In this document: in pieces, positions 246-49,144 of the stretch
How positions within the stretch are numbered: the stretch's first letter is position 1
How the letters are laid out: each line of letters opens with the position of its first letter
NCBI GenBank assembly: GCA_031422295.1
Contig: JANOQM010000079.1
Span: forward strand, 1 to 49,748
Direction: 5' to 3'
Length of the DNA stretch: 49,748 bases
Source of the DNA: Rhodobacterales bacterium
GTDB lineage: Bacteria; Pseudomonadota; Alphaproteobacteria; Rhodobacterales; Rhodobacteraceae
The notes under the pieces: generated by a model
Databases searched by the model: none
Told to the model about the DNA's origin: nothing
The model's input: the letters and a program-made list of their open reading frames with translations, nothing else
Made by a program: the position numbers and the translations under genes

Positions 246-374
246 ATCGACCGGCTGACCTTCAAGGAAATCGCCGCCGATATCGCCGCGCAATTCCCGC
301 CCGAACGCCGCGCATCGGTGTCCGGTCTGCATCGCTGGTTTCACCGGCAAAAGCGGCACGGGGCGGGCCAATGA
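15..374 (+). CDS. Open frame without a start codon, running through both palindrome arms and ending in an ATGA overlap with the next gene. It is probably the 3' part of a gene whose true 5' end is masked or replaced by the left palindrome arm.
   Basis: There are no stops from 15 to 372-374 (TGA). No ATG or GTG start is visible. The stop overlaps the ATG at 371, which suggests translational coupling. The C-terminal part (246-374) looks like a real protein, ending ...FKEIAADIAAQF...SGLHRWF. Confidence 0.2.
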   Translation, partial: RRSIRGQCRSATDCQRGAPRGAGQSGVRCLEQGLQQGFEGAVQDTLPPIDPHRAAHRVGSPSRIDTDPELTAFIRARIDRLTFKEIAADIAAQFPPERRASVSGLHRWFHRQKRHGAGQ

Positions 375-718
375 CGCATCAACTCCCCGTCCTGCCTTAC
401 CCTAAACCCACGGCGCAAGTCGCACCCTATGTCGAGGCCCTTGGGTTCGACATGGCAATCACCTTCCTGTTGCAATTCGGCGGCGCTGAACTTTACATCG
501 CCAAAGACCCGAAAAGCCGGGGCCAGCTCGAAGCGCTTGTTGGCGCAGATCGGGCCAAAGCGCTTGGCGCAATCGACCACCGCCTGCAACGCCGCGTCCC
601 GCTGGCCAAACCGTGGCTGGCCGTCTGCTTTGCAACCCGTGGCATGGGCACAGCCGAAATCGCCAGAATGCTACGAACTTCCGACACAAGCGTCAGAAAG
701 TGGTTGAAAACATGCTAA
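371..718 (+). CDS. Mor-family (phage Mu middle-operon regulator-like) transcriptional activator, 115 aa
   Basis: It carries a GG-x-ELYI-x-K motif (QFGGAELYIAKD) and a C-terminal HTH (GMGTAEIARMLRTSDTSVRKWL). Both are as in the Mu Mor/C family (PF08765-like). Confidence 0.5.
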   Translation: MTHQLPVLPYPKPTAQVAPYVEALGFDMAITFLLQFGGAELYIAKDPKSRGQLEALVGADRAKALGAIDHRLQRRVPLAKPWLAVCFATRGMGTAEIARMLRTSDTSVRKWLKTC

Positions 719-954: not shown

Positions 955-2562
955 TTAAAACCCGATCAATGCGTAGCCAATCATCACAAGGGCCGAAACA
1001 GTCGTGATTATTTTTGCGCCCTTGTAAACTGCACTTTTATCAATCTCATGGATAAGAGATGGGGTCGCTTTTATCATCAATAGGATGCGCGCTGCGCGAC
1101 CAAACACCCGAACCTTCTCATCCCGCATTGAAAGTGCCAGAGTCCGATCTGCGGGGCCCAACGTGCGGTAGTTGGCCGAGAACCCCTTGGTATCATCAAC
1201 AATCGCCAGAATATCTTGCTGCCAGTCTGCCTGCCCTTGGCCCTCTGTGATATCCACAAGGACAGGCATTGCCTCTGTCATCAAATCCAACGCTGCCTCG
1301 GGCATTTCCGCGAAGGCCTGTGTTTCAATCAGCTTACGGTTCTGCGCCACATCCGGGTGCGTGGCCCTGATTCCCAATGCCCCTTCTTCTAGGGCGCGGA
1401 TCAGTCCCAAATTCTCTTCCGAAGCCGGCAATTCATCCGTCGCAATCTGGCGCACCAGCCCGGCATGAATGGCAGTAAAGTCCATTTCAATCCGCTGCGG
1501 ATCATTTCCGTAACGAGCAAAAGTCCGGTGAAGTACTCGCGCCTCTCGCGACGTCATTTGAAGGCCGTTCCTAGTATCTATTAGGACGTCCTCAAGTGCA
1601 TCCTGCGCCTGAGAAAGAGTAGCGCCAAGTAGGTCAGGTTTCGATATTGCTTGCGGCGAGAAAAAGAATTTCCCGGTATTCTGATTGAACTCGACTTTTT
1701 CGGCCAACAGGAGTTTTTCGGCGAGATGCTCCGTCCTAGCGTCCTCAATCTTGCTCGAGAGGTGGCCTGCGCCTTGCGTCCAACCGGAATCCGGAATAAC
1801 GGCAATTCTCCGATAGAAACTCCAGTCAATTACCTTTCCTTCGACAAAAGCCTCATACCAATTGGACCAAAAACGCCAATCTTGGCCCGATTTCCAAAAC
1901 GCTTCGGTTACAGAGGTGTATTCCAGTGGGTATATCAATATAGATCGGTTTTTGTTCGATTCGACAGTTTCATTATCCTCAGGATCTAGTAATTCGCCTT
2001 CATATATCGTGTCAGTTAGCCCATCTTTTGCATCGTGAGTTGAAACGAAAAGATCAAAATCATCAATCAAAGAGCTAGCGTCTGTTCCAGAGCACTGTGT
2101 TCGTCCGATTGATCGAATGACGCGATTAATCAATACGGCACGTTGGTCAGGTGGAGTCAAAAGGCTATTCAATAAAGAATCACACGATTCAACGACGCGT
2201 ATCTGGTTGATTCGCTTTGGTTTTGGCTTTATGTTCTTGAGTTGGACAATTGTTTCCTTGATCCTAATATCAATCTCTGGATTAGGTTGAACCATCCAAG
2301 AAGATGATACAACTAAGGCACGCAAAACAGGAATTACAATTTCAGCTACTTCTGAGGCCTTCCAGTCGTCACCTATGTAGCCCTTTCTGAAATGCGGGGA
2401 CAGCGCTTCAAGTCCACGAAAAGCTGCACGCCAGGCTAACTGCAAGCTAGCACTGCTGCCGAGTTCCCCGTTGATTAAGTCTTCGAGGTGTAAGCCATAT
2501 GAATCAACTGTTTCACTTCTCGCCAAATCTGCACCCCGTTTTTTTACTGGCACAATCTGCAC
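955..2562 (-). CDS. Hypothetical protein, 535 aa, with a C-terminal transmembrane anchor. It is transcribed divergently from lepA.
   Basis: Long ORF. The hydrophobic C-terminus reads [18 protein letters not shown]. Composition is mosaic: the N-terminal-coding part (about 1650-2562) and the extreme 3' end are visibly AT-richer than the central part. I recognise no family motif. Confidence 0.55.
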
Positions 2563-2656
2563 CGTCTTTCCTCACACGTCCACCCCCATCCCCCCTTGCA
2601 AAACCGCCCTTTTCCCCCCAATACCGGCCTCTGAAACCCCCATCAGGCCGCATCCC

Positions 2657-4456
2657 ATGCCCGACCTCGCCCATATCCGCAATTTCTCGATCGTGGCCCA
2701 TATCGACCACGGTAAATCCACCCTTGCCGACCGGCTGATCCAGGAAACCGGCACCGTCAAGGACCGGGATATGAAAGAGCAGATGCTTGATTCGATGGAT
2801 ATCGAGCGGGAGCGGGGGATTACCATCAAGGCCAACACGGTCCGCCTTGATTACACAGCGAAAAACGGCGAACACTATGTGTTGAACCTGATCGACACCC
2901 CCGGCCACGTCGACTTTGCCTACGAGGTGTCGCGGTCAATGCGCGCCGTCGAAGGCTCGCTTCTGGTGGTCGATGCATCGCAAGGGGTCGAGGCGCAGAC
3001 CCTTGCCAATGTCTATCAGGCGCTGGATGCCGGGCATGAAATCGTCCCCGTCCTGAACAAGATCGACCTGCCCGCCGCCGAACCCGACCGCATCCGCCAG
3101 CAGATCGAAGACGTCATCGGGCTCGACGCGTCCAACGCCGTCCTGATTTCCGCCAAATCCGGCATCGGCATCCCGGATGTGCTCGAGGCTATCGTCCACC
3201 GCCTCCCCGCCCCTAAAGGCGACCGCGACGCGCCGCTCAAGGCGATGTTGGTCGACTCGTGGTACGACAGCTACCTCGGCGTCGTCGTGATGATCCGGGT
3301 GATCGACGGGGTCGTCCGTAAAGGGGATCGCGTGCGGATGATGCAGACCGACGCGGTCTATGGCATCGACACGCTGGCCGTGTTGAAACCGCAAATGGTG
3401 CCGATTGCCGAACTGGGGCCGGGCGAAATCGGCGTCCTCACCGCCAGCATCAAACAGGTCCGCGACACCCGCGTTGGCGATACGATCACCAGCGAACGCA
3501 AGGGCTGCGAGGTCGCTTTGCCCGGCTTCAAACCCGCGCAGCCCGTCGTGTTCTGCGGCCTGTTCCCGGTCGATGCGGCGCAATTCGAGGATCTGCGCGA
3601 CTCCATCGAAAAACTCGCCCTGAACGATGCGTCTTTCTCCTATGAAATGGAAACCTCGGCGGCCTTGGGGTTTGGTTTTCGCTGCGGCTTCCTCGGGCTG
3701 TTGCATCTTGAGGTGATCCGCGACCGGATCGAGCGGGAGTATAATATCGACCTGATCACCACCGCCCCCTCGGTGGTGTATCACCTCTATATGAAAGACG
3801 GCACGGTGCGCGAATTGCACAACCCCGCCGACATGCCCGACCTCACACTCATCGACCACCTCGAAGAGCCGCGGATCAAGGCCACGATCCTGGTGCCCGA
3901 CGATTACCTCGGCGATATCCTCAAACTCTGTCAGGACCGGCGCGGCGTGCAGCTTGACCTGACCTATGCCGGGTCCCGCGCCATGGTTGTTTACGACCTC
4001 CCCCTCAACGAAGTGGTGTTCGATTTCTATGATAGGCTGAAAAGTGTTACCAAAGGGTATGCATCGTTCGACTACCAACTCTCCGCCTATCAGGAGGATA
4101 ATCTGGTCAAGATGTCGATCCTCGTGAACGACGAACCGGTCGACGCCCTGTCGATGATGGTCCACCGCGACCGGGCCGATATGCGGGGCAGGGCGATGGT
4201 GGAGAAACTGAAAGAGCTGATCCCGCGGCACATGTTCAAGATCCAGATCCAGGCGGCGATTGGCGGCAAGGTGATCGCGCGGGAGACTTTGTCGGCGCTG
4301 CGCAAGGACGTGACGGCGAAATGCTATGGCGGCGATGCGACGCGGAAACGCAAGCTGCTGGACAAGCAGAAGGCCGGGAAAAAGAAGATGCGGCAGTTCG
4401 GGAAGGTCGAGATTCCGCAGGAGGCGTTTATTTCGGCGTTGAAGATGGATGGGTGA
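2657..4456 (+). CDS. lepA: Elongation factor 4 (LepA), 599 aa
   Basis: The N-terminus reads [27 protein letters not shown], with G-domain motifs DTPGHVDF and NKID. The length matches LepA. The track ORF 2471.. is an upstream in-frame extension. Confidence 0.95.
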
Positions 4457-4461
4457 ATAAA

Positions 4462-5577
4462 ATGACACTGTTAGAAGAAGTTGAAATCGGTTCTCGCAGA
4501 GTTGCTACTGATGGAATCACGATGAGCATCGGAGAGCTGTCTACATACTATCGTGATGGTGATTTAAATATTAACCCCGAGTTTCAGCGTGCATTCCGAT
4601 GGACAATTGATAAGAAATCAAATCTAATTGAGTCCATTCTACTTTCAATTCCTATCCCATCAATTTTTGTATTCGAGAATGAAGATGGAACGTGGGAATT
4701 AGTAGACGGCCTTCAAAGACTTTCCACTATCTTTGAATTTATGGGGATTCTCCGAGAGCCCGACAAGAGTGCACGTCCACCATCATGCCTTATCGAAACG
4801 ATTTACCTCCCTAATTTGAGCAATGCCGTTTGGGAGAGGTCTAAGCGAGTAGTCGGAATTTCAGAAAAGACGCAAGTGCCAATTGAATCGGCTCTACAAC
4901 GTCGAATAAGAACTGCTAGAATACAAGTTGAAATTCTAAGGTTTACTAGCGACGTTGATACCAAATTTGATTTATTCCAAAGATTAAACAGAGGTGGAGA
5001 AACGGCTAATGCGCAAGAAGTCAGAAATAGTCTTTGCGTGATGGCTAGTGAATCTGGATTCAAAAAATTAAAGGCATATGCCTCAGACTCACTTTTTCAG
5101 GAACTATTTAAGATAACTGACACTGGGAAGGAGCAGCAGAAGCATATTGAGTATTTAATGCGTCTAGTTGTTCATACTTATTTTGACTTTGATACAAAAA
5201 AGGACTTGGAGTCATTCATCGACGATGGGATTAAGAAAGTCCTAACGGATGAAAAAAAATACCCTTGGAAAATCAAAATTAACAAAGCTCTTGAGCGCAT
5301 CAATAGTGCCTGCGGGGATGTGGCGCTTCTCCCTCGACTTGGAGAAACTAGAACAGCAAATCGGGTAAGCCTTCGGCAGCTGGAAGCAATCGCCGTTGGG
5401 GTTTCTCGAAACATTGATGCGATTGAAAAAGTGAAAAACCCCGATGCTTTTCTAAAGAAAAAGATTGAGAGTTTTTGGGATCAGCCAGAGGTGGAAAAGA
5501 TGTCAGCTGCGGGATTGAATAGTAGTGTTCGGCTTCAAAGAACCGTTCCATTTGGTCTGACTTGGTTTAGGCCATAG
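4462..5577 (+). CDS. DUF262 (ParB/Srx-like; GmrSD N-terminal-type) domain protein, 371 aa
   Basis: Signature INPEFQRAFRWT...LIESILLSIPIPSIFVFE...WELVDGLQRLSTI (DGLQR at nt 4705-4719). The start ATG at 4462 follows the lepA stop by 5 nt. The gene is visibly AT-rich relative to lepA. Confidence 0.85.
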   Translation: MTLLEEVEIGSRRVATDGITMSIGELSTYYRDGDLNINPEFQRAFRWTIDKKSNLIESILLSIPIPSIFVFENEDGTWELVDGLQRLSTIFEFMGILREPDKSARPPSCLIETIYLPNLSNAVWERSKRVVGISEKTQVPIESALQRRIRTARIQVEILRFTSDVDTKFDLFQRLNRGGETANAQEVRNSLCVMASESGFKKLKAYASDSLFQELFKITDTGKEQQKHIEYLMRLVVHTYFDFDTKKDLESFIDDGIKKVLTDEKKYPWKIKINKALERINSACGDVALLPRLGETRTANRVSLRQLEAIAVGVSRNIDAIEKVKNPDAFLKKKIESFWDQPEVEKMSAAGLNSSVRLQRTVPFGLTWFRP

Positions 5578-5584
5578 AACTGGT

Positions 5585-6289
5585 ATGCGGTCTCACCTAA
5601 CCAAGATGATGGAGTGGCGAACGCTAGAAATTGCGGAGATGAAGGCACTTCTGCCGCGGCAGTCTGATATGGGATTTGAATTATTTTGCCGAGGAGCTAT
5701 GGTCCTGTGTTATGCTCACTGGGAAGGAGCATTTAATGATTGCCTGAAGGTAGTCGTAGGCACATTGAAGTCAGGGGACATTGACTTAAGTCGAGCACAT
5801 CCCGGAATTTCCGCGCTATTTTTCTCCCGAGATATTGATTCTTTCCTGAATAGAAGGATCGAAGAAGATACTGTCGTTGAGCACTTAATTGCGTTTCACT
5901 TCCTGTGTCAGAAGTCGGTGAAGGGAGAGGTTGCAAATGCTCGTGCTGCCACGACGAGGTCAAATCTTAATTGGAATCGAATAGAAGTGGTATTTTCTAT
6001 ATTCGGATTCAGTTGGCCAAAGCTTCATTTGAAGAAGATATTCATTGAGCACAAGTTGTCGCGTCTACGTCATTCAATAGCACACGGCGAAGCTCCAAGA
6101 TTGACTAGAGTTGTCGCGTTGCAGCAGTTAGACGAAACAAGCATATTGTTAGATGAGATAGCTGAATATTTCCATGCAGTATATAGTTCGATTTTGCTAC
6201 CCCTCTCTGACCAGCCAAAGGTCAATAATTTGACCGTGCTACTTCCCGCCAAGTCTGCGACTGAAAGCACACCCTACACCAGCCCATAA
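5585..6289 (+). CDS. HEPN-like protein (MAE_28990/MAE_18760-like family), 234 aa
   Basis: It has an R-x4-H HEPN motif, RHSIAH (R162 at nt 6068-6070, H167 at 6083-6085). It is co-oriented 8 nt after the DUF262 gene and is AT-rich like it. Confidence 0.7.
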   Translation: MRSHLTKMMEWRTLEIAEMKALLPRQSDMGFELFCRGAMVLCYAHWEGAFNDCLKVVVGTLKSGDIDLSRAHPGISALFFSRDIDSFLNRRIEEDTVVEHLIAFHFLCQKSVKGEVANARAATTRSNLNWNRIEVVFSIFGFSWPKLHLKKIFIEHKLSRLRHSIAHGEAPRLTRVVALQQLDETSILLDEIAEYFHAVYSSILLPLSDQPKVNNLTVLLPAKSATESTPYTSP

Positions 6290-11764: not shown

Positions 11765-12160
11765 ATGCTTCCGCTTACAATATTGCCACTTGGCATATTC
11801 GTTCTGGCCCTGGCCGCCTGCGGCATCGCCGGGACATCCGGCCTGCCAAATGGGCGCAGCAGTGCCGAAATGCCTGCCCTGACCTGTTCCTTGGCCGTGA
11901 CCGAACGCGGCGGCCAGTTGCAGATGACAGGGCAGCTGCGGGCCGCCCGGCCGGTGTCTGGCCGTTATGCCCTCACTATTGCCCAAACCGGGCGAACCGG
12001 GCAAAACCTGATCGACCAATCGGGTGATTTTCAGGCCCGCGCTGGCGAAACCGTAACTTTGGGGTCCGCAAACATATCTGGGTCTATGGCCGGTTTCGCG
12101 GCCACTTTGACGGTTGAATATGCACAGGGCACCCTGGACTGCCCGATCACGCTGTCCTGA
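11765..12160 (+). CDS. csgH: CsgH/CsgC-like curli chaperone/inhibitor candidate, 131 aa
   Basis: Small secreted beta-rich protein (lipobox LAACG) located between two curlin-repeat genes. This is the placement seen for CsgH in alphaproteobacterial curli loci. Confidence 0.45.
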   Translation: MLPLTILPLGIFVLALAACGIAGTSGLPNGRSSAEMPALTCSLAVTERGGQLQMTGQLRAARPVSGRYALTIAQTGRTGQNLIDQSGDFQARAGETVTLGSANISGSMAGFAATLTVEYAQGTLDCPITLS

Positions 12161-12194
12161 CCACAAACCCATAGGATAAAAGGAGAATGCTGCC

Positions 12195-12584
12195 ATGCTT
12201 CGCCCCCTATTACGCGCGGCCGTTCTGGCCGTTCTGGCCGGAACAGCCGGTCCGGCAATTGCGGAGAATGTGATTTCGCTATCTTTGACCCCGCGCAACA
12301 CCCAAGAGGCTGATCTGTTGCGCCTTGGTCTGGCGCTATATGCGATCAATCGCCAGACTAGGGACGGGGCCATGATCGACCAGACCGGGCACAACAATTC
12401 CGCTGGCATCACCCAAGGCGACCCCGGCAGTTTTGCCCTGATCCAACAGCGTGGGCGTGACCATTTTGCGACGTTGGAGCAACCGGGCACTGCGGGGGCC
12501 TATGCCATATTTCAGTCCGGCAAAGGTGCAGTCGCACAGGTCGGGGACGGCAAGGCGGGTGTGCTGATCCAGTTCGGCTGGTAG
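12195..12584 (+). CDS. csgB: Curlin-repeat protein (CsgB-like nucleator candidate), 129 aa
   Basis: Signal peptide plus curlin repeats, for example IDQTGHNNSAGITQG, ALIQQRGRDHFATLEQ and AIFQSGKGAVAQVGDG. Confidence 0.7.
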   Translation: MLRPLLRAAVLAVLAGTAGPAIAENVISLSLTPRNTQEADLLRLGLALYAINRQTRDGAMIDQTGHNNSAGITQGDPGSFALIQQRGRDHFATLEQPGTAGAYAIFQSGKGAVAQVGDGKAGVLIQFGW

Positions 12585-12594
12585 CCGGGCTTGC

Positions 12595-13341
12595 GTGCCG
12601 CATTCCAACGCATTAAACGCCGACCCGATGACACCCCATCCGCCCAAGACCCACCCCAACGGCACGCCTTGGCGCAACTTTTATGGCCGGATCCGGGGCA
12701 AGACGATCCGCGCCTCGCAATTTACCTATCTGGATGAGGATCTGGGGCCATTGTCCCCCGGTCCAACCTCGTGGGAGGAGAACCCGGACCGCCTGCCGCT
12801 GGACCTGACCGCCCGTTTTGGCAGCCGCCCGGTCTGGCTTGAGATTGGTTTTGGCGGTGGTGAGCATATGGTCCATATGGCCGCCACCCATCCGGACATG
12901 GCGATTATCGGCTGCGAGCCGTTCATCAATGGCGTCGCGATGCTGCTGGGGCGCATCCGCACTGCGGGCGTGACCAATCTGGCCGTTTATCCCGATGATG
13001 TCCGGCATTTGTTTGATGTGCTGCCTGCAGGGTCGATCCAGAAGGCATTCCTGAATTATCCCGACCCATGGCCAAAAAACCGCCACCACCGCCGCCGTTT
13101 TGTGACGCAGGATCATTTGCTGGGGCTGGCGCAAGTGATGGCCAAGGGTGCCGAGTTTCGGGTGGCCACGGATATTGCGGACTATGTCCGCCAGACATTG
13201 GACGAAGTTCCCAAGGCCGGGTTTGCACGCGTCGATACGGATATTCATCGCGCATGGCCGGACTGGATTTCGACCCGGTACGAAGTGAAAGCCCTACGTG
13301 AAGGCCGGGTCCCGCATTACATGACGTTTCATCGGCGGTAA
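12595..13341 (+). CDS. trmB: tRNA (guanine46-N7)-methyltransferase, 248 aa
   Basis: [13 protein letters not shown] motif, and the [14 protein letters not shown] motif. Confidence 0.9.
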
Positions 13342-13448
13342 GGCAGCAGCCTCCGGCGGAGGTATTTGGGCAACTCCGAAAATCAAGCGTGTGGACCCTT
13401 TTGACCGGCTCGGTTAAGAGCCTTGCGAACGCCAAATGTGAGGTTGAT

Positions 13449-14801
13449 ATGTCCGGTCATGGCCCTTCAATTCCGATGACATCCCGCAAGGGATTGCCGC
13501 TGACGGGCGTGGCGCATGTCCCGGGAGACAAGTCGATTTCGCACCGGTCGTTGATCCTTGGCGCTCTGGCGGTGGGCGAAACCCGGATCGAAGGGCTGCT
13601 GCTGGGCGAGGATGTGCTGGATACCGCCCGCGCGATGCGCGCTTTTGGAGCCGAGGTTGTGGATCATGGCGCAGGCCGCTGGTCCGTGTTTGGTGTGGGT
13701 GTCGGCGGCTTTGCTGAACCCAAGGGCGTGATTGATTGCGGCAATTCCGGCACGGGTGTGCGTCTGATCATGGGCACGATGGCGACCAGTCCGATCACCG
13801 CCACCTTTACCGGCGATGCGTCGCTGAATGGCCGCCCTATGGGCCGCGTCACCGATCCGCTGGCGTTGTTCGGGGCGCGGGCTTATGGCCGTCAGGGCGG
13901 CCGATTGCCGATGACCATTGTCGGGGCGGCTGACCCTGTCCCGGTCCGCTATGTTGTGCCGGTTCCGTCGGCGCAGGTGAAATCGGCCGTGCTGTTTGCC
14001 GGACTGAATGCCCCCGGCCAGACCGTGGTCATCGAGAACGAAGCGACCCGCGACCATACCGAGCGGATGCTGGCGGGGTTTGGCGCCAAAGTGTCGGTCG
14101 AGATCACGCCCGAGGGCAAGGTTATCACCCTGACCGGACAGCCGGAGTTGAAGCCGCAGCAAATCGTGGTTCCACGCGATCCGTCATCCGCTGCCTTTCC
14201 GGTCTGTGCGGCGCTGATTGTCGAGGGGTCGGATGTGCTGGTCCCCAATATCGGTCTGAACCCGACCCGCGCTGGTCTGTTCACCACCCTGCGCGAGATG
14301 GGCGCAGACCTGACTTATGAGAATTTGCGCGAAGAAGGAGGCGAGCCTGTGGCCGATCTGCGCGCCAGGTTCTCGCCTGATATGACGGGCATAGAGGTCC
14401 CCCCCGAACGCGCTGCCAGCATGATCGACGAATATCCAGTGCTGTCAGTCGTGGCCGCTTTTGCCGCTGGCCAGACTGTGATGCGCGGCGTCAAAGAGTT
14501 GCGCGTCAAGGAAAGCGACCGGATTGATGCGATGGCCAAGGGGCTGCGCGCCGCCGGGGTCACCGTTGATGAGGGCGAGGATTGGTGGATTGTCACAGGC
14601 CGCGGTCATGGCGATGTGCCGGGCGGTGTGACCGTGGCCAGTGTGCTGGACCACCGCATTGCCATGTCGTTCATCATCATGGGTCTGGCCACGAACAAAC
14701 CGATGACCGTCGATGATGCCAGCCCGATTGCTACGTCGTTTCCGGTGTTCGAGCCGCTGATGGCCGCATTGGGCGCAACGATCACGCGGGATAACAGATG
14801 A
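13449..14801 (+). CDS. aroA: 3-phosphoshikimate 1-carboxyvinyltransferase (EPSP synthase), 450 aa
   Basis: N-terminus [41 protein letters not shown]. The track start at 13389 is an upstream in-frame extension. Confidence 0.93.
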
Positions 14802-43196: not shown

Positions 43197-43286
43197 GGAG
43201 GCGTGGCTGAGAGGCCGAAAGCACTCGGTTGCTAACTGAGCGTGGGGGGAACTCCACCGTGGGTTCGAATCCCACCGCCTCCGCCA
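43197..43286 (+). tRNA. tRNA-Ser (anticodon GCU), long variable arm, encoded CCA
   Basis: Acceptor stem ggaggcg/cgcctcc. Anticodon stem ctcgg/ctgag with loop ttGCTaa. Long extra arm. T-arm ggttcgaatcc. Confidence 0.9.
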
Positions 43287-43501: not shown

Positions 43502-44770
43502 ATGAAGATCACCTTGCGGGGCAATCAACTCTATCTCTACAGGCGCGTCCCGAAGCGTTACGGGGCCGTGGAGTCGCGCCAGTTTGTCTGGGTCAGCCTC
43601 CACACGGACTCGCAAACAGTGGCCGCGCTCAAGGCGACCACCGCCTGGGAGTTAATGGTCGAAGGCTGGGAGGCCAAGCTAGCCGGCGATACCACCGACG
43701 CTGAGGCCCGCTTTCAGGCGGCACGGGACCTCGCTGCAGTGCGCGGCTTTCGTTATCTGGATGCAGCGTCGGTTGCCAAACTGCCGCGCAGCGATTTGCT
43801 GGAGCGGATCGAAGCCGTCAAACAATCGCCGAAAGGCCCCGACTTTCGAGAGGCTGGAGCCTTTCTCGGCGGTGCCGCGGAACCTGAGATTACGATCAGC
43901 CGTGCACTGGAGCTTTACTGGACCCTGGCTGCAGATCGGACAATCGGCAAAAGCGATGACCAGCTTCGGCGCTGGAAAAACCCGTTGATCAAATCAGTCA
44001 AGAATTTGGTTGCCCAGATCGGGGACAAGCCGTTGTCGCATATCTCCACAGATGACATGCTCGATTTCAGGCAATGGTGGGTCGAAAGGATCGCCGAAAA
44101 AGGCTTGACCGCGAATAGCGCCAACAAGGACCTGATTCACATTGGCAGCATTTTGAAAACTGTGAACAACATGAAGCGCCTCGGACTAATCCTGCCACTT
44201 TCAGGGCTGTCGCTGAAAGAGGTTGGGCAGCAGGTTAGGCCCCCATTTAGCGACATTTGGATTAGGGACAAGCTACTTGCGCTAGGCGCATTGAGGGGCC
44301 TCAATACCGAGGCTCGCTGCATCCTGCTGGGCATGATCAATACCGGATATCGACCCAGTGAAGGGGCGGCACTCTTGCCGGCGCACATCCGGCTCGATCA
44401 CAAAGTGCCGCACATTTCCATCGAGGCAGATGTTCGGCAGTTGAAATCGGCCAACGCCAAGCGGATTATCCCTTTGACCGGGATCAGTCTTGCCGCACTG
44501 CGCGAATGCAGCAACGGCTTTCCGCGATACCGCGACAACCCGGGCCTGTCCGACACGATCAACAAGTTTCTGTCCGAGAACGAGCTGAAGGAGTCGCCCC
44601 GCCACTCTGTGTATTCGCTGCGCCACGCCTTTGAAGACAGAATGCTGGAAGCTAGTTTCGACGAGCGTATCAGACGGGATCTCTTGGGGCACAGCTTGGA
44701 TCGCGAGCGCTACGGCAAGGGGGGATCACTGGAACATACCCACGACCTCCTTCAGGCCATCGCCCTCTGA
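43502..44770 (+). CDS. int: Tyrosine-type site-specific integrase (phage-integrase family), 422 aa
   Basis: C-terminal catalytic region: ...RPSEGAAL..., HSVYSLRHAFEDRMLEA, and RRDLLGHSLDRERYGKG (the R..H-x-x-R..Y pattern). Confidence 0.8.
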   Translation: MKITLRGNQLYLYRRVPKRYGAVESRQFVWVSLHTDSQTVAALKATTAWELMVEGWEAKLAGDTTDAEARFQAARDLAAVRGFRYLDAASVAKLPRSDLLERIEAVKQSPKGPDFREAGAFLGGAAEPEITISRALELYWTLAADRTIGKSDDQLRRWKNPLIKSVKNLVAQIGDKPLSHISTDDMLDFRQWWVERIAEKGLTANSANKDLIHIGSILKTVNNMKRLGLILPLSGLSLKEVGQQVRPPFSDIWIRDKLLALGALRGLNTEARCILLGMINTGYRPSEGAALLPAHIRLDHKVPHISIEADVRQLKSANAKRIIPLTGISLAALRECSNGFPRYRDNPGLSDTINKFLSENELKESPRHSVYSLRHAFEDRMLEASFDERIRRDLLGHSLDRERYGKGGSLEHTHDLLQAIAL

Positions 44771-45496: not shown

Positions 45497-46900
45497 AGCA
45501 TTGGTCAGACTCAACCGGAGCCGTCCTGACAGCAAGGTGGAGGGATTCGTGACGAGGTAGCGAAGCTGTGCCCCGTTAGGCGACAAGCCGGCAGCACTGC
45601 GCCCCTTGCTCGGCAATGCGTCACCTGCCAGTTTGCGTGACCAGTTTGGGGCAAAGTGTTTATGAAAGGCCCACGACGCAGTCGAACACAGAAACGACTG
45701 GTTTGGAATCTCTGTGCAAGCGCCAGACGTTCGACCACGTGTCCACTTCGAGCGCGACCAGTATTTCGCTGATCACCGATCAGTGACTACGTGCGGTACG
45801 CATGGCATGAACATAGCGTGGATCGAAGGGATTTGCACCGAGTGGCGACGGGTCATACCAGTCAATATTGCCCTCTGCACTCCTGCGCTACGGTTGTTGG
45901 TCGCTCTTCATGCTCCTGAAAGGGTGCCTCTACGTCTGGGACTCAGCTGGAGCGTCGCTGACGGCAAGGTCAGTCCTGCCTGCCACCCCATTGTGAGTCA
46001 AAACCAAGACGGCCCCAGGTGACTCGCGTTGGGGCTTCTAGCGCGATGCCCTGTGTTCATCCGTCTCCATGGCAGCACCTCCTTGGTGCCGCAAGTGAAT
46101 CAGTGAGTTGGCCCGCACACAAGCGATTTAATGGGTCCTGAGCCTAGGTATGCTTCGAACTATTTCAAAGGGCAGAGTAAGACCATCCTGAGCCACAGCA
46201 TTTTGCTTGGTATACAGGCAATAGTAGAAATGCAAACTTCATAAAAGCTAAGAAACATTGCCACCACACCGTATTAATTCATTTAGATCGTCCTGCAGCC
46301 CACGACTCAGCATTTGCGAGCTGGTAACGATTTGCTCCTCTGATCGCACCGTCCAGCTGAATTTGATAAGGACCAACTCGATAAATTAGCGTATGGGCGG
46401 CGTCAATTCGCACATGGAGCATGAAGTCTGAAATTCTTTCGCTGGGCAGAATGATGATGTGAATTGTCTTGCGACTTATTTTGGGGCGATATTTCAGCTT
46501 CGAGAGTTTGTCGCGTATGTTTATTTTTGTTGGTGAGATAGTTTGTCCAAATAGGAAGTCACGCCACAGGCAATATAAAGTAATTATTGCGAGGGTTTTG
46601 CTTTATATATTGCAATGCAGTTGAAGATATGGCGCGTCATCCGCGCCCATTTCAGTATCAGAATGATTCAACGAGTTGACATAACTTCAATCTTCTGATC
46701 CCATTATTCTAGGACGGAATAGATGAAAATTTTTGTGAATTCGAAAGTTCTAATTTCTATGTGATTTTAATAGCTAGAGTTGTTGATGAGAGTGAAAAGC
46801 ACGTGGCACACTTGAGAAGATATCTGATCGTTGATAGGATCAATTTTCATTCCCAACGTCGTTGACGTCGGTTGCTGTTCCCAAAGGCAAGGAAGCTAGG

Positions 46901-49144
46901 GTGACTATTTTCTTCGCTCATTCAGCGAGTTCTTCAGACTCTCTCGACTGGCAAACGCTTCCCGAGCATCTGACGCAGGTCGCCAAAGCTGCGTCAGAGA
47001 GAGCCTTTCCTTTCGGGCTATCCCAGTTGACCCATCTTGCGGGCCTGTTTCACGATCTTGGAAAGTATGATCGAGCGTTTCAGCGCAAATTGTCTGGCGA
47101 GGTCAATCGGGTCGATCATTCGTCCGCCGGAGCTGTGGTTCTGTTGGATCAGGCGCAACCAAAAGATCGCATTCCAGTCGAGATGGTTGCCTATGCGATC
47201 TTGGGCCACCACGCCGGTTTGCCAGACTATGATACATCCGACGGGGCCAGCTTTCAGCGGCGTGTCGAAAACTACAATGACCAACTTGATCCGATCTGGA
47301 GACAACAAATCCAAGTGCCGCAACCAGATTTATCTGGCGAGCTTATGGCCCTGTTGCAAGGGCGTAGCAGTAAATTGACAGGCCCATTTGATATCTCGGT
47401 CGCCACGCGTATGCTGTTCTCCAGCCTTGTCGACGCCGATTTCCGCGATACCGAAGCGTTTTATGGCGAACTCGAAGGAACGACGAAGGACCGCGACTGG
47501 ACCGCACTGCAAATGGCTTTGCCGCAGTTTATAGCAGCCTTTAACGACCATATGGCAAAACTGCCCAACACTGCCATAGCCGTCAACACATTGCGACACG
47601 AGGTTTTGGCGCATGTGCGGGGCAGGGCAGGGATGTCGCCGGGTCTGTTCACCCTGACTGTGCCGACCGGGGGTGGCAAGACGCTGGCTTCATTGGGGTT
47701 TGCGCTGGATCATGCGCAGTTGCACGGGCATTCACGAATTATCTATGCCATCCCTTTCACCTCGATCATCGATCAGACCGCCGCGATTTTTCGGGGCATT
47801 CTTGGCGACATGAACGTTCTCGAGCACCACTCGGCCATCGAAGATGATGCGAGAAACGATAAGGACCGCAAAAGCCGTGACAAGGTGCAGCTGGCGATGG
47901 AGGATTGGGCGGCCCCGGTGGTCGTGACCACCAATGTGCAACTCTTCGAAAGCCTGTTTGCCGCCCGCCCCGGTCGTGCCCGCAAGCTGCACAACATCGC
48001 AGGGTCTGTTATCATTCTGGACGAGGCGCAGACCATACCGCGCCCGTTGCTTCTCCCCTGCCTGCGCATGCTGGATAGCATGGCGCGGCTGTTTCACTGC
48101 TCGATCGTGCTGTGCACGGCGACGCAACCTGCGGTGGACGAGGCTGTTTTGAAGGGTGGGCTGGCGCTGGCCGGGCGCGAACTGGCACCTGACCCGGCAG
48201 CGCTGGCCAGGCGGTTGCGACGGGTGCAAATTGGCCATGCTGGTGTCATGGATAACTTGGCTTTGGTGGCCGCGTTAAGTGGTGTGCAGCAGGGTCTGGT
48301 TGTGGTCAACAGTCGGGTTCATGCGCTGGATTTGTGGAACGATGCTAAAGGGTTGGACGGACTTTATCATTTGTCAACACGCCAATATGCAGCGCACCGG
48401 CGGCGTTTGCTGGCAATAATTCGCCAAAGGCTTGCCGATGGGCTGCCATGCCGCGTGATCTCGACCAGTTTGATCGAGGCGGGGGTGGATATTTCATTTC
48501 CTTGCGCATGGCGGGCCGAGGCGGGTTTGGATCAAATTGTGCAGGTTGCCGGACGGGTGCACCGCAATGGCGAGATGTCGCCAGAATTGGGGCGGGTGAC
48601 AGTCTTTACTCCCGATGGCTATGCCCCGCCGCCTGAAATCAAGGGGCTGATTGGCGATATGGCCCGGATGCGGGAAAAGTTTGACGACTTGCAATCGCCG
48701 GAAGCGATTCAGAGTTACTTTGGCGAGGTGTATTGGCGGCTGGATGCTGACTTGGACCGCGAAGGAATTGTGGGAAGTTTCAAGATCATCGGCAATCACA
48801 CCAATTTCAACTTCCGCACCGTGGCCGAAAAGTTTCGGATGATCGAAAGCGGCATGGTGCCGGTGATTATTCCATGGGATGCGGAGAGTAGCGCGGCTAT
48901 TTCAGACCTTGAAAAACCATGGATCAAATCCGGCCAGATTGCCCGCGCCCTGCAAACCCACCTCGTGACCGTTCCACCCAAAGCCCGCGACCGGATGCAG
49001 GCCTGCGGCAAGGGCTATTTCGCCCAGCCGAAAGTGCGGGGCGATCAGTTCTTTGTGCTGGAGGCTATGAGCCTTTATCACGAGGAAACCGGCCTGCATT
49101 GGGAAGATGCGGAATATCTGGGGATAGAAGCAGGGATAATTTAA
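46901..49144 (+). CDS. cas3: CRISPR-associated helicase/nuclease Cas3 (HD nuclease + SF2 helicase), type I; 747 aa from a GTG start. The frame stays open upstream to the TTG at 46862.
   Basis: HD motif FFAHSA...HLAGLFHDLGKYDRAFQ. Walker A VPTGGGKT. Motif II IILDEAQ. The GTG at 46901 is preceded by an aaggaag RBS. Confidence 0.88.
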   Translation: MTIFFAHSASSSDSLDWQTLPEHLTQVAKAASERAFPFGLSQLTHLAGLFHDLGKYDRAFQRKLSGEVNRVDHSSAGAVVLLDQAQPKDRIPVEMVAYAILGHHAGLPDYDTSDGASFQRRVENYNDQLDPIWRQQIQVPQPDLSGELMALLQGRSSKLTGPFDISVATRMLFSSLVDADFRDTEAFYGELEGTTKDRDWTALQMALPQFIAAFNDHMAKLPNTAIAVNTLRHEVLAHVRGRAGMSPGLFTLTVPTGGGKTLASLGFALDHAQLHGHSRIIYAIPFTSIIDQTAAIFRGILGDMNVLEHHSAIEDDARNDKDRKSRDKVQLAMEDWAAPVVVTTNVQLFESLFAARPGRARKLHNIAGSVIILDEAQTIPRPLLLPCLRMLDSMARLFHCSIVLCTATQPAVDEAVLKGGLALAGRELAPDPAALARRLRRVQIGHAGVMDNLALVAALSGVQQGLVVVNSRVHALDLWNDAKGLDGLYHLSTRQYAAHRRRLLAIIRQRLADGLPCRVISTSLIEAGVDISFPCAWRAEAGLDQIVQVAGRVHRNGEMSPELGRVTVFTPDGYAPPPEIKGLIGDMARMREKFDDLQSPEAIQSYFGEVYWRLDADLDREGIVGSFKIIGNHTNFNFRTVAEKFRMIESGMVPVIIPWDAESSAAISDLEKPWIKSGQIARALQTHLVTVPPKARDRMQACGKGYFAQPKVRGDQFFVLEAMSLYHEETGLHWEDAEYLGIEAGII

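Follow-up and report, generated by a model that had tools for sequence, protein, structure and literature searches.

A lepA-linked accessory gene of marine Rhodobacteraceae with exchanged N-terminal cassettes and a conserved C-terminal module

Introduction

Bacterial NLR-like (nucleotide-binding, leucine-rich repeat) proteins that bear leucine-rich repeats (LRRs) are defence proteins with swappable sensors, and variation of the hsdS and pilin type takes place at cassette loci and replacement-type flexible genomic islets, where conserved flanks recombine and the sequence between them is exchanged. Proteins of the ElaB/YqjD type are bacterial tail-anchored membrane proteins. Here we describe a gene of 535 codons adjoining lepA, for which we use the shorthand X, in 49,748 nucleotides of DNA from a Rhodobacterales bacterium (GenBank assembly GCA_031422295.1, contig JANOQM010000079.1); this whole stretch is called the window, L-numbers denote loci and P-numbers relative proteins. 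The HEPN/RES-NTD1 domain has been described only as an N-terminal fusion partner of toxin domains, HEPN and RES among them (PMC3710099), SsdAI is an immunity protein of the type VI secretion system (PMC7901873), and the combination of DUF262 with a MAE_28990-type HEPN is known from conflict systems (PMC3710099; PMC12065111).

The organisation of X resembles that of known modular conflict proteins; its conserved module is new. As in HEPN/RES-NTD1 proteins (PMC3710099; PF18870), an N-terminal helical adaptor or sensor precedes a C-terminal module. A PF18870-like head occupies exactly that place in five relatives of X, and a MAE_28990-type HEPN gene lies 3 kb from X; the C-terminal module of X, however, is neither HEPN nor RES. 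In fold the helical bundle of the head resembles DUF416 (YjaG-like) proteins and SsdAI, but these stand alone at ~195 residues, whereas the head of X is fused to a 310-residue module and has no toxin partner. Like the polymorphic NsnA/NsnC of Menshen (PMC12065111) and LRR defence proteins, X joins a conserved part to many alternative recognition domains, LRRs included, and shows a patchy distribution, low GC and a setting in hotspots or defence islands. Unlike them, it is a single gene without a recognised NTPase, nuclease or other effector and without a match in PADLOC.

With replacement-type islets X shares identity cliffs between conserved arms and unrelated alleles at one position in close relatives. 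It differs from these in having no silent store, invertase or recombinase nearby and one copy in the window, and in varying between species and strains with no evidence of within-cell switching. As in tail-anchored proteins of the ElaB/YqjD type, a signal peptide is absent and a single hydrophobic helix stands at the extreme C terminus, but X is much larger, its tail is borderline and in most relatives charged, and there is no sequence relation. Compared with polymorphic toxin/immunity systems the polarity is reversed (variable N terminus, conserved C terminus), and a conserved partner gene is missing.

Results

X belongs to an undescribed family with variable heads

A first search retrieved 78 relatives of X, every one named 'hypothetical', from Roseovarius, Aliiroseovarius, Ruegeria, Shimia, Sulfitobacter, Rhodovulum and other Rhodobacteraceae. 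Profile searching of 1.84 billion cluster representatives returned 323 at E ≤1e-30 and 3405 at E ≤1e-3; the more than 300 relative clusters are almost all from Rhodobacteraceae and none is annotated, a Labrenzia member extending the family slightly past that group. X belongs to an undescribed family of marine Rhodobacteraceae, and is not the orphan for which the first-pass annotation, made from the letters of the window alone, had taken it. The same annotation had found no family to which X could be assigned, and this holds in Pfam (no match at E ≤1), NCBIfam, PADLOC and PHROGs, where the sole match is meaningless (E 0.31), as well as in a sequence search of the PDB with the family profile, which gave chance matches only (MAO-B, E 0.037). 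Literature searches brought up nothing relevant on a hypervariable lepA-linked gene of Rhodobacteraceae, nor on DUF416.

The domain architecture was derived from alignments and two AlphaFold models, one of the full-length protein (mean predicted local distance difference test score (pLDDT) 83.5, predicted template modelling score (pTM) 0.80) and one of the C-terminal module (pLDDT 86.6). The parts and their coordinates are collected in Table 1. Typical relatives cover just the C-terminal ~57% of X. The core, which begins at about residue 280, is common to all of them, with D321, R346, N353, P355, Q356, E359, R399, R409 and D450 invariant in 79 sequences and R485 and R489 likewise listed among the invariant polar residues. 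The W-rich region in front of the core was found in 203 of 241 relatives. Residues 176–209 of the linker are modelled with pLDDT <50; its motifs C.GTD and PLE.TSVTEAF are conserved across the three proteins that make up the N-type of X (alignment A4).

Table 1. Features of gene X and its borders in the window (pLDDT and pTM as defined in the text; AF2, AlphaFold 2; ORF, open reading frame; GC3, GC content at third codon positions)
Feature	Coordinates	Strand	Evidence
Complete gene X	955..2562	-	ORF list, homolog clusters, AF2 model pLDDT 83.5, pTM 0.80
Hypervariable N-domain, residues 1-175, seven-helix bundle, low-GC cassette	2038..2562	-	
Acidic linker, residues 176-224	1891..2037	-	GC3 0.37, alignment A4
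W-rich helical region, residues 225-279, W.FW..WY.G.L.G.P.DW, conserved cassette arm	1726..1890	-	GC3 0.55
Conserved core, residues 280-535, beta-hairpin 288-303 then ~10 helices	958..1725	-	
Strongest-conserved motif, residues 351-361, N353/P355/Q356/E359 invariant (79 sequences)	1480..1512	-	
C-terminal hydrophobic helix, residues 515-535, possible tail anchor	958..1020	-	hydropathy scores
Inverted repeat GGTGCGTGA / TCACGCACC, 9-bp stem, begins at X stop codon	922..955	-	
Divergent intergenic region X/lepA, 91 bp	2563..2653	.	sequence

In front of the conserved part the family is highly diverse. Among 178 complete N-regions, 56 sequence clusters were distinguished, and the N-type of X has three members; besides LRR and HEPN/RES-NTD1 heads, there are at least 50 further types. 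LRR heads are present in at least eight relatives (P0066, P0067, P0071, P0076, P0161, P0167, P0170 and P0191) and HEPN/RES-NTD1-like heads in five; both kinds replace the W-rich region and join the core directly at 'RLPLAE..F...G.F'. The five HEPN/RES-NTD1-like heads match PF18870 (gathering score 27.4 bits) over profile positions 25–92 with 27.2 (P0240), 26.1 (P0172), 23.4 (P0241), 18.4 (P0200) and 17.1 bits (P0243), which suggests that these heads are related to that family and implies nothing for the head of X, whose own protein has no PF18870 match in the Pfam search. The best structural matches of the X N-domain are DUF416 proteins (PDB 2q9r and 3f7c) and SsdAI (PDB 7jtu_B), with no significant match of X to the DUF416 profile (PF04222; Pfam, E ≤1). 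A search with the N-domain alignment A4 came back empty, missing P0003 and P0004 too, so that it is silent on other architectures carrying the head of X.

The core is a new conserved module of 255 residues, helical apart from its hairpin, without a Pfam or PDB relative. A Foldseek comparison with viral structures (BFVD) gave nothing at E ≤1e-3. The possibility of a divergent HEPN domain was tried and rejected: alignment with the HEPN protein of the window by hhalign gave Probab=0.07 (0.07%), and the Rx4-6H motif is absent.

The head is exchanged as a cassette with sharp borders

Different parts of X match different relatives. Residues 280–535 are 73–75% identical to P0001 and P0002, two proteins with unrelated N-domains. 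For the head, linker and W region the only matches are P0003 and P0004 (31–48%), which are 41.5% identical to X in the core. At the nucleotide level, X and the P0002 locus (L144) are at random similarity to about residue 200, the rise beginning at about residues 200–215, at 0.56–0.64 over residues 210–320 and at 0.74–0.82 over 328–400; with the P0003 locus (L145), which is also lepA-linked, the picture is reversed, the head and W region being similar and the sequence random past residue 400. The break at about residues 200–225 (nt ~1890–1960) coincides with a step in GC content. Codons 1–224, which encode the N-domain and linker (nt 1891–2562), have GC 0.40–0.45 and GC3 0.37–0.39, against 0.52 and 0.55 for codons 225–535 (W region and core, nt 958–1890). 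The AT-richer 5' half that had been noticed in the sequence is thus a sharp step in sliding GC, and the mosaic origin that had been proposed from it is supported by the two sets of relatives.

For comparison, the GC3 of lepA is 0.81 and the GC of the whole contig 0.571. Merely 2.2% of 750-nt contig windows have GC ≤0.44, and those with GC ≤0.47 form three patches: X, a DUF262/HEPN gene pair on the other side of lepA, and 45.9–47.2 kb. Low GC3 is found throughout the family (means of 0.52 for the N-part and 0.61 for the C-terminal 310 residues, with lepA at 0.80), and the N-part lies below the C-part in 39 of 54 members.

Pairwise comparison of 32 lepA-linked loci places these differences on a common scale. 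Identity is 79–96% in lepA, 19–80% in the C-terminal 310 residues and about 16% (median), the random level, in the N-part. Even pairs with lepA proteins 95–96% identical share 53–80% of the C-terminal 310 residues and 10–17% of the N-part, and identity of the C-terminal 310 residues follows that of lepA weakly (Spearman 0.17). In three species pairs (L001/L004, L010/L055 and L003/L005) sliding nucleotide identity runs at 80–93% along lepA, falls to 0.3–0.4 from 100–190 nt upstream of the X start through the first 550–650 nt of the gene, and recovers abruptly to 0.7–0.95 mid-gene, above the level of lepA in L001/L004; a second, softer drop crosses the last 150–300 nt. The lepA–X intergenic region is replaced along with the N-domain in these related species. 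Between L001 and L004, nt ~595–1045 of X are 91–95% identical, more than their lepA genes (85–92%), which suggests recent transfer or gene conversion of that segment.

The N-domain and the lepA–X intergenic region act as a sharply bordered cassette, flanked by lepA on one side and mid-gene sequence on the other. Replacement of this cassette explains the low GC of the 5' third of X. Silent cassettes and a second copy of X were absent from the window. In the simplest mechanism, cassettes would be swapped through homologous recombination, with lepA and the conserved middle of the gene serving as arms. Gene-transfer agents of Rhodobacteraceae carry fragments of a few kilobases; fragments of that size would suffice, making these agents a plausible vehicle.

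X is an accessory islet at the lepA–c2 junction

Occupied loci were collected by scanning one genome per GTDB species with the pattern of the residue 351–361 motif. All 62 come from Rhodobacteraceae/Paracoccaceae or unclassified metagenome-assembled genomes, and about 40 have a divergently oriented lepA as the immediate upstream neighbour of the gene. On the far side there is often a small Cys-rich lipoprotein gene, which we call c2, followed by genes for a low-molecular-weight protein tyrosine phosphatase (LMW-PTP), UPF0262, hisD, Sir2 and PCuAC; at other X loci the far-side genes are unrelated metabolic or membrane genes. The product of c2 is a secreted protein or lipoprotein of ~100–150 residues with a conserved four-Cys domain and no Pfam match (GPI..AC...R.A....CGC.Q..AD..L...D....A.FF.DP...Q..RQSD....E.FW..Y..FG..A...C). 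It delimits the insertion site on the side away from lepA, standing directly after X in L007, L011, L015, L022, L026, L029, L041, L045 and L051 and beside lepA in L064–L080.

An independent sample of 80 lepA loci was recruited from metagenome contigs with the lepA of the window, the positive controls of this search working as they should. X is present in none of the 80. Of these loci, 18 combine a lepA identity of ≥81% with ≥1.7 kb of sequence upstream; two of the 18 (L079 and L088), with GC3 of ~0.25 and rplT/pheS-type genes upstream, are probably not Rhodobacteraceae. About ten loci show an empty site, in which c2, followed by LMW-PTP, UPF0262 and hisD, abuts lepA across a gap of 160–650 nt; L064, L065, L066, L069, L071, L074, L075, L078 and L080 are of this kind and contain no detectable remnant of X. 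Since the site is empty in these related lepA loci, X can be described as an accessory islet of one gene, with presence/absence polymorphism at the fixed lepA–c2 junction. Moreover, copies are split or frameshifted in L018, L036, L041 and L023, suggesting that X is dispensable, and L056 and L029 contain two copies each. Joined to the cassette data, this makes it very probable that X is an accessory islet of modular build that undergoes cassette exchange.

A search by hmmsearch of all ORFs of the loci for a conserved partner gene or hidden paralogs recovered the known copies only, neighbours without a Pfam match are unrelated membrane proteins of normal GC3, and neither RNA genes nor a tRNA that might have served as integration target was found beside X.

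These data bear on whether X might be a lineage-specific housekeeping or scaffold protein of the envelope or the ribosome/EF4 neighbourhood, its N terminus evolving fast under relaxed constraint. Such a role would fit a chromosomal gene never met on plasmid or phage, at the same lepA-side position in many genera, with core genes as neighbours and a strongly conserved centre (the 91–95% of L001 and L004). It accords poorly with a clean empty site in many relatives whose lepA is equally similar, with several split copies, with N-domains that belong to different folds or families (LRR, HEPN/RES-NTD1, DUF416-like) and have sharp nucleotide borders, with the weak correlation between the C-terminal 310 residues and lepA, and with a GC3 far under that of the genome; we consider it quite unlikely. 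Indeed, synteny with lepA is confined to the loci carrying X, which departs from the behaviour of a lepA-syntenic housekeeping family, and the variable accessory hotspot suggested by the first-pass annotation is borne out by the roughly 40 linked loci and by the 80 without X, about ten of which show the empty site.

To the left of X lies a convergent gene (371–718, plus strand) whose product, a 115-residue helix-turn-helix (HTH) protein, has a match of 9e-18 to PHROG 836, the Mor-like 'late transcriptional activator'. In front of it a partial ORF (frame +3) ends at ~370 and, by eye, looks like a small HTH-type DNA-binding protein, no search having been made for it. The two may mark the border of a Mu-like prophage, or of some other element, inserted in the place where c2 normally sits. 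That X is cargo of such an element, acquired with it as a unit, would agree with the low GC as well as with the Mor-like gene. The Mor-like gene and the partial ORF, however, occur at none of the other 62 X loci, X keeps its lepA-proximal place without them, and no relatives of X were found among 2.9 M viral contigs (IMG/VR), 50,697 phage records (INPHARED) or 72,556 plasmids (PLSDB), so that we regard this origin as very improbable.

X is one gene

The 535-codon ORF divergent from lepA that had been placed at 955–2562 is a single minus-strand reading frame with a TAA stop (ORF list). It starts with GTG at 2562, six nucleotides 3' of a Shine–Dalgarno sequence (GAGGA, 2569–2573), and an in-frame TGA lies 5' of the start at 2572–2574. 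The true start of the divergent lepA is ATG 2654, leaving a spacer of 91 bp; the 661-residue lepA ORF listed from 2471 is over-extended. A promoter scan, rated uninformative, found no sigma-70 consensus between the two genes. The inverted repeat at the X stop codon is a possible terminator hairpin without a T-tract, to which the terminator scan gave no score.

The public annotation of the source contig has only a 176-residue product for X, M360–F535 (P0203). This is a misannotation: 176 of 535 codons are called and two thirds of the coding sequence are left out, probably because the AT-rich 5' part resembles non-coding DNA to a caller trained on a genome with GC3 of ~0.8. X is one gene and not a frameshift-joined pair, a possibility that the first-pass annotation had raised, because an independent Logan contig encodes an identical 535-residue product with the lepA start alongside, P0003 and P0004 align to 93–98% of its length and retain the N-domain (E 4e-25 and 8e-19), the N-domain is modelled with pLDDT >90 within a confident single chain, and a ribosome-binding site precedes the GTG. 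In view of these data, an artefact in which two genes are fused by frameshift, or in which the real gene is the 3' 176 codons alone, is extremely improbable, even though the public record and the shift in base composition within the ORF would both be expected from it.

The C-terminal helix is a possible, borderline anchor

The last 18–21 residues of X have a KD17 of 2.07, an Eisenberg <H> of 0.77, a muH of 0.18 and a Hessa dG17 of 0.04 kcal/mol. Among 188 family tails, dG is ≤0 in 46, the Eisenberg score is transmembrane-like in 65 and at least one charged residue is present in 132; G529 is almost invariant. By these sequence scores the tail of X is a possible, borderline membrane anchor and not a family constant. 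It could equally pack onto the bundle or drive oligomerisation. Hence, of the first-pass description of a membrane-anchored protein with a single C-terminal transmembrane helix, the hydrophobic C-terminal helix stands and the anchor is a possibility.

X as a possible conflict protein

Head swapping combined with presence/absence polymorphism is typical of arms-race genes, for example in phage defence. By analogy with these, we favour reading X as a modular conflict or defence protein, in which a swappable recognition head would be joined to a conserved, possibly membrane-targeting module, and give this a probability of roughly 0.4. We favour it because heads are swapped wholesale and presence is patchy, GC is low and copies occasionally decay; because the heads include LRR recognition modules and near-threshold HEPN/RES-NTD1 domains, behind which the core occupies the position of HEPN or RES effectors; because the fold of the X head resembles an immunity protein; and because paralogs away from lepA adjoin defence or mobile genes, while the DUF262/HEPN pair stands on the far side of lepA. 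In this scheme a foreign protein that evolves quickly would be recognised by the variable head, which in X would be a DUF416/SsdAI-like binder and in other members is an LRR or HEPN/RES-NTD1-like domain. The conserved core would then carry out the response or pass it on, perhaps acting at the inner membrane by means of its C-terminal helix.

Among the paralogs away from lepA, that of Maritimibacter HTCC2654 (L037) stands third in a Type III Mod+Res operon, where stop and start codons overlap (PADLOC matches MTase_III, 2e-157, and REase_III). The HEPN/RES-NTD1-headed paralog of L032 comes after a WYL regulator and a 1121-residue helicase, and other paralogs neighbour a resolvase (L033), a phage GPD hub (L044), a BrnA antitoxin (L034) or an XRE regulator (L049). 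L032, from Roseibaca sp. Y0-43, further contains on the minus strand (11766–14761) genes for a 647-residue Hsp70-like ATPase and a 352-residue protein without Pfam or PADLOC match; this block may be an uncharacterised defence island.

Several observations weigh against a conflict role. No annotation link supports it: PADLOC-DB v2 contains no family matching X at E ≤1, and the core has no recognisable catalytic or pore-forming fold. At lepA, X is solitary, its remaining neighbours being ordinary metabolic genes, and some paralogs adjoin the housekeeping genes priA, uvrC and murC. The absence of phage, plasmid and viral relatives argues against mobility on such elements and says nothing for defence. 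All five PF18870 matches lie just under the Pfam cut-off, and the likeness to DUF416 and SsdAI is one of fold, at 7–12% identity, among helical bundles that match easily. For half of the family members, the C-terminal helix is unconvincing as a transmembrane segment. Finally, the counts given above are of sampled loci and may be biased as a measure of occupancy across Rhodobacteraceae.

The structural matches of the head to DUF416 proteins and the all-helical SsdAI also point to another role, that of a membrane-tethered immunity protein or decoy whose head neutralises toxins of neighbouring cells as SsdAI does SsdA, the conserved part serving only to position or oligomerise it. Immunity genes are typically hypervariable and AT-rich, and proteins with Hint domains, which are common in polymorphic toxins, are encoded directly downstream of X in L014, L040, L056 and L058. 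These four are Hint_2 proteins (PF13403, 2e-38), and in L056 two full copies of X flank one of them. Against such a role, a cognate toxin gene is not consistently adjacent and most loci, the window included, contain no toxin-like gene; a 310-residue module with ~20 invariant polar residues far exceeds the needs of an anchor; and similarity between helical-bundle folds is weak evidence. An immunity function thus appears unlikely.

A bolder form of the conflict proposal is that X represents a new single-gene class of conflict or defence protein in marine Rhodobacteraceae, in which an undescribed helical effector or transducer fold (W-rich region and core) would be combined with a head exchanged as a DNA cassette, promoter included. 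Recombination between lepA and the middle of the gene, perhaps driven by gene-transfer agents, would bring about the exchange, and the population as a whole would thereby keep many specificities available at a single chromosomal position. We put this forward as a tentative and somewhat doubtful idea.

Other features of the window

Between lepA and an alpha/beta-hydrolase gene the window contains a DUF262/GmrSD_N protein gene (PADLOC NsnA 1.5e-53, PD-T4-2_A 1.5e-32), followed 8 nt on by a HEPN gene (MAE_28990 2e-17 / RiboL-PSP). The pair (4321–6289, plus strand) has GC of 0.37–0.47. The listed DUF262 start at 4321 overlaps the 3' end of lepA and is probably too far upstream. The pair is missing from all 62 other X loci, including the ~40 linked to lepA, in which lepA is followed by the hydrolase, orf7410 and glyA. 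It has the look of a defence pair (ParB/DUF262 + HEPN) specific to the strain.

At the left end of the contig, positions 1–119 and 127–245 form a 119-nt inverted repeat, 97% complementary, around a 7-nt spacer. Such a structure suggests a fold-back artefact of assembly at the contig end, and the first ~120 nt, the outer arm that copies 127–245 in reverse complement, are untrustworthy. Towards the right end, a tRNA (43197–43283) is followed by a tyrosine-integrase-like gene (43502–44770), a low-GC stretch at ~45.9–47.2 kb and a gene for a 760-residue protein with HD and DEAD-helicase motifs and a Cas3-like appearance (46862–49144). This is probably a tRNA-integrated island with a type I CRISPR-Cas system running off the contig.

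Discussion

The roseobacter group is among the most abundant marine heterotrophs, and its repertoire for phage defence and competition is poorly charted. The family of X adds to it hundreds of divergent members that are unannotated in Pfam, NCBIfam, PADLOC and PHROGs and share a core without a structural relative. Its evolution is unusually clean: the gene has a fixed address beside a gene of essential type, is polymorphic in its presence, and exchanges its head at sharp borders. X is also amenable to direct testing because natural allele series exist.

If X does act in defence or immunity, its core would be a new effector fold, and recombination between conserved arms, plausibly by way of gene-transfer agents, would be the means by which specificity is diversified. 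If it does not, X is still a large protein, conserved yet mosaic, that is misannotated in the public record.

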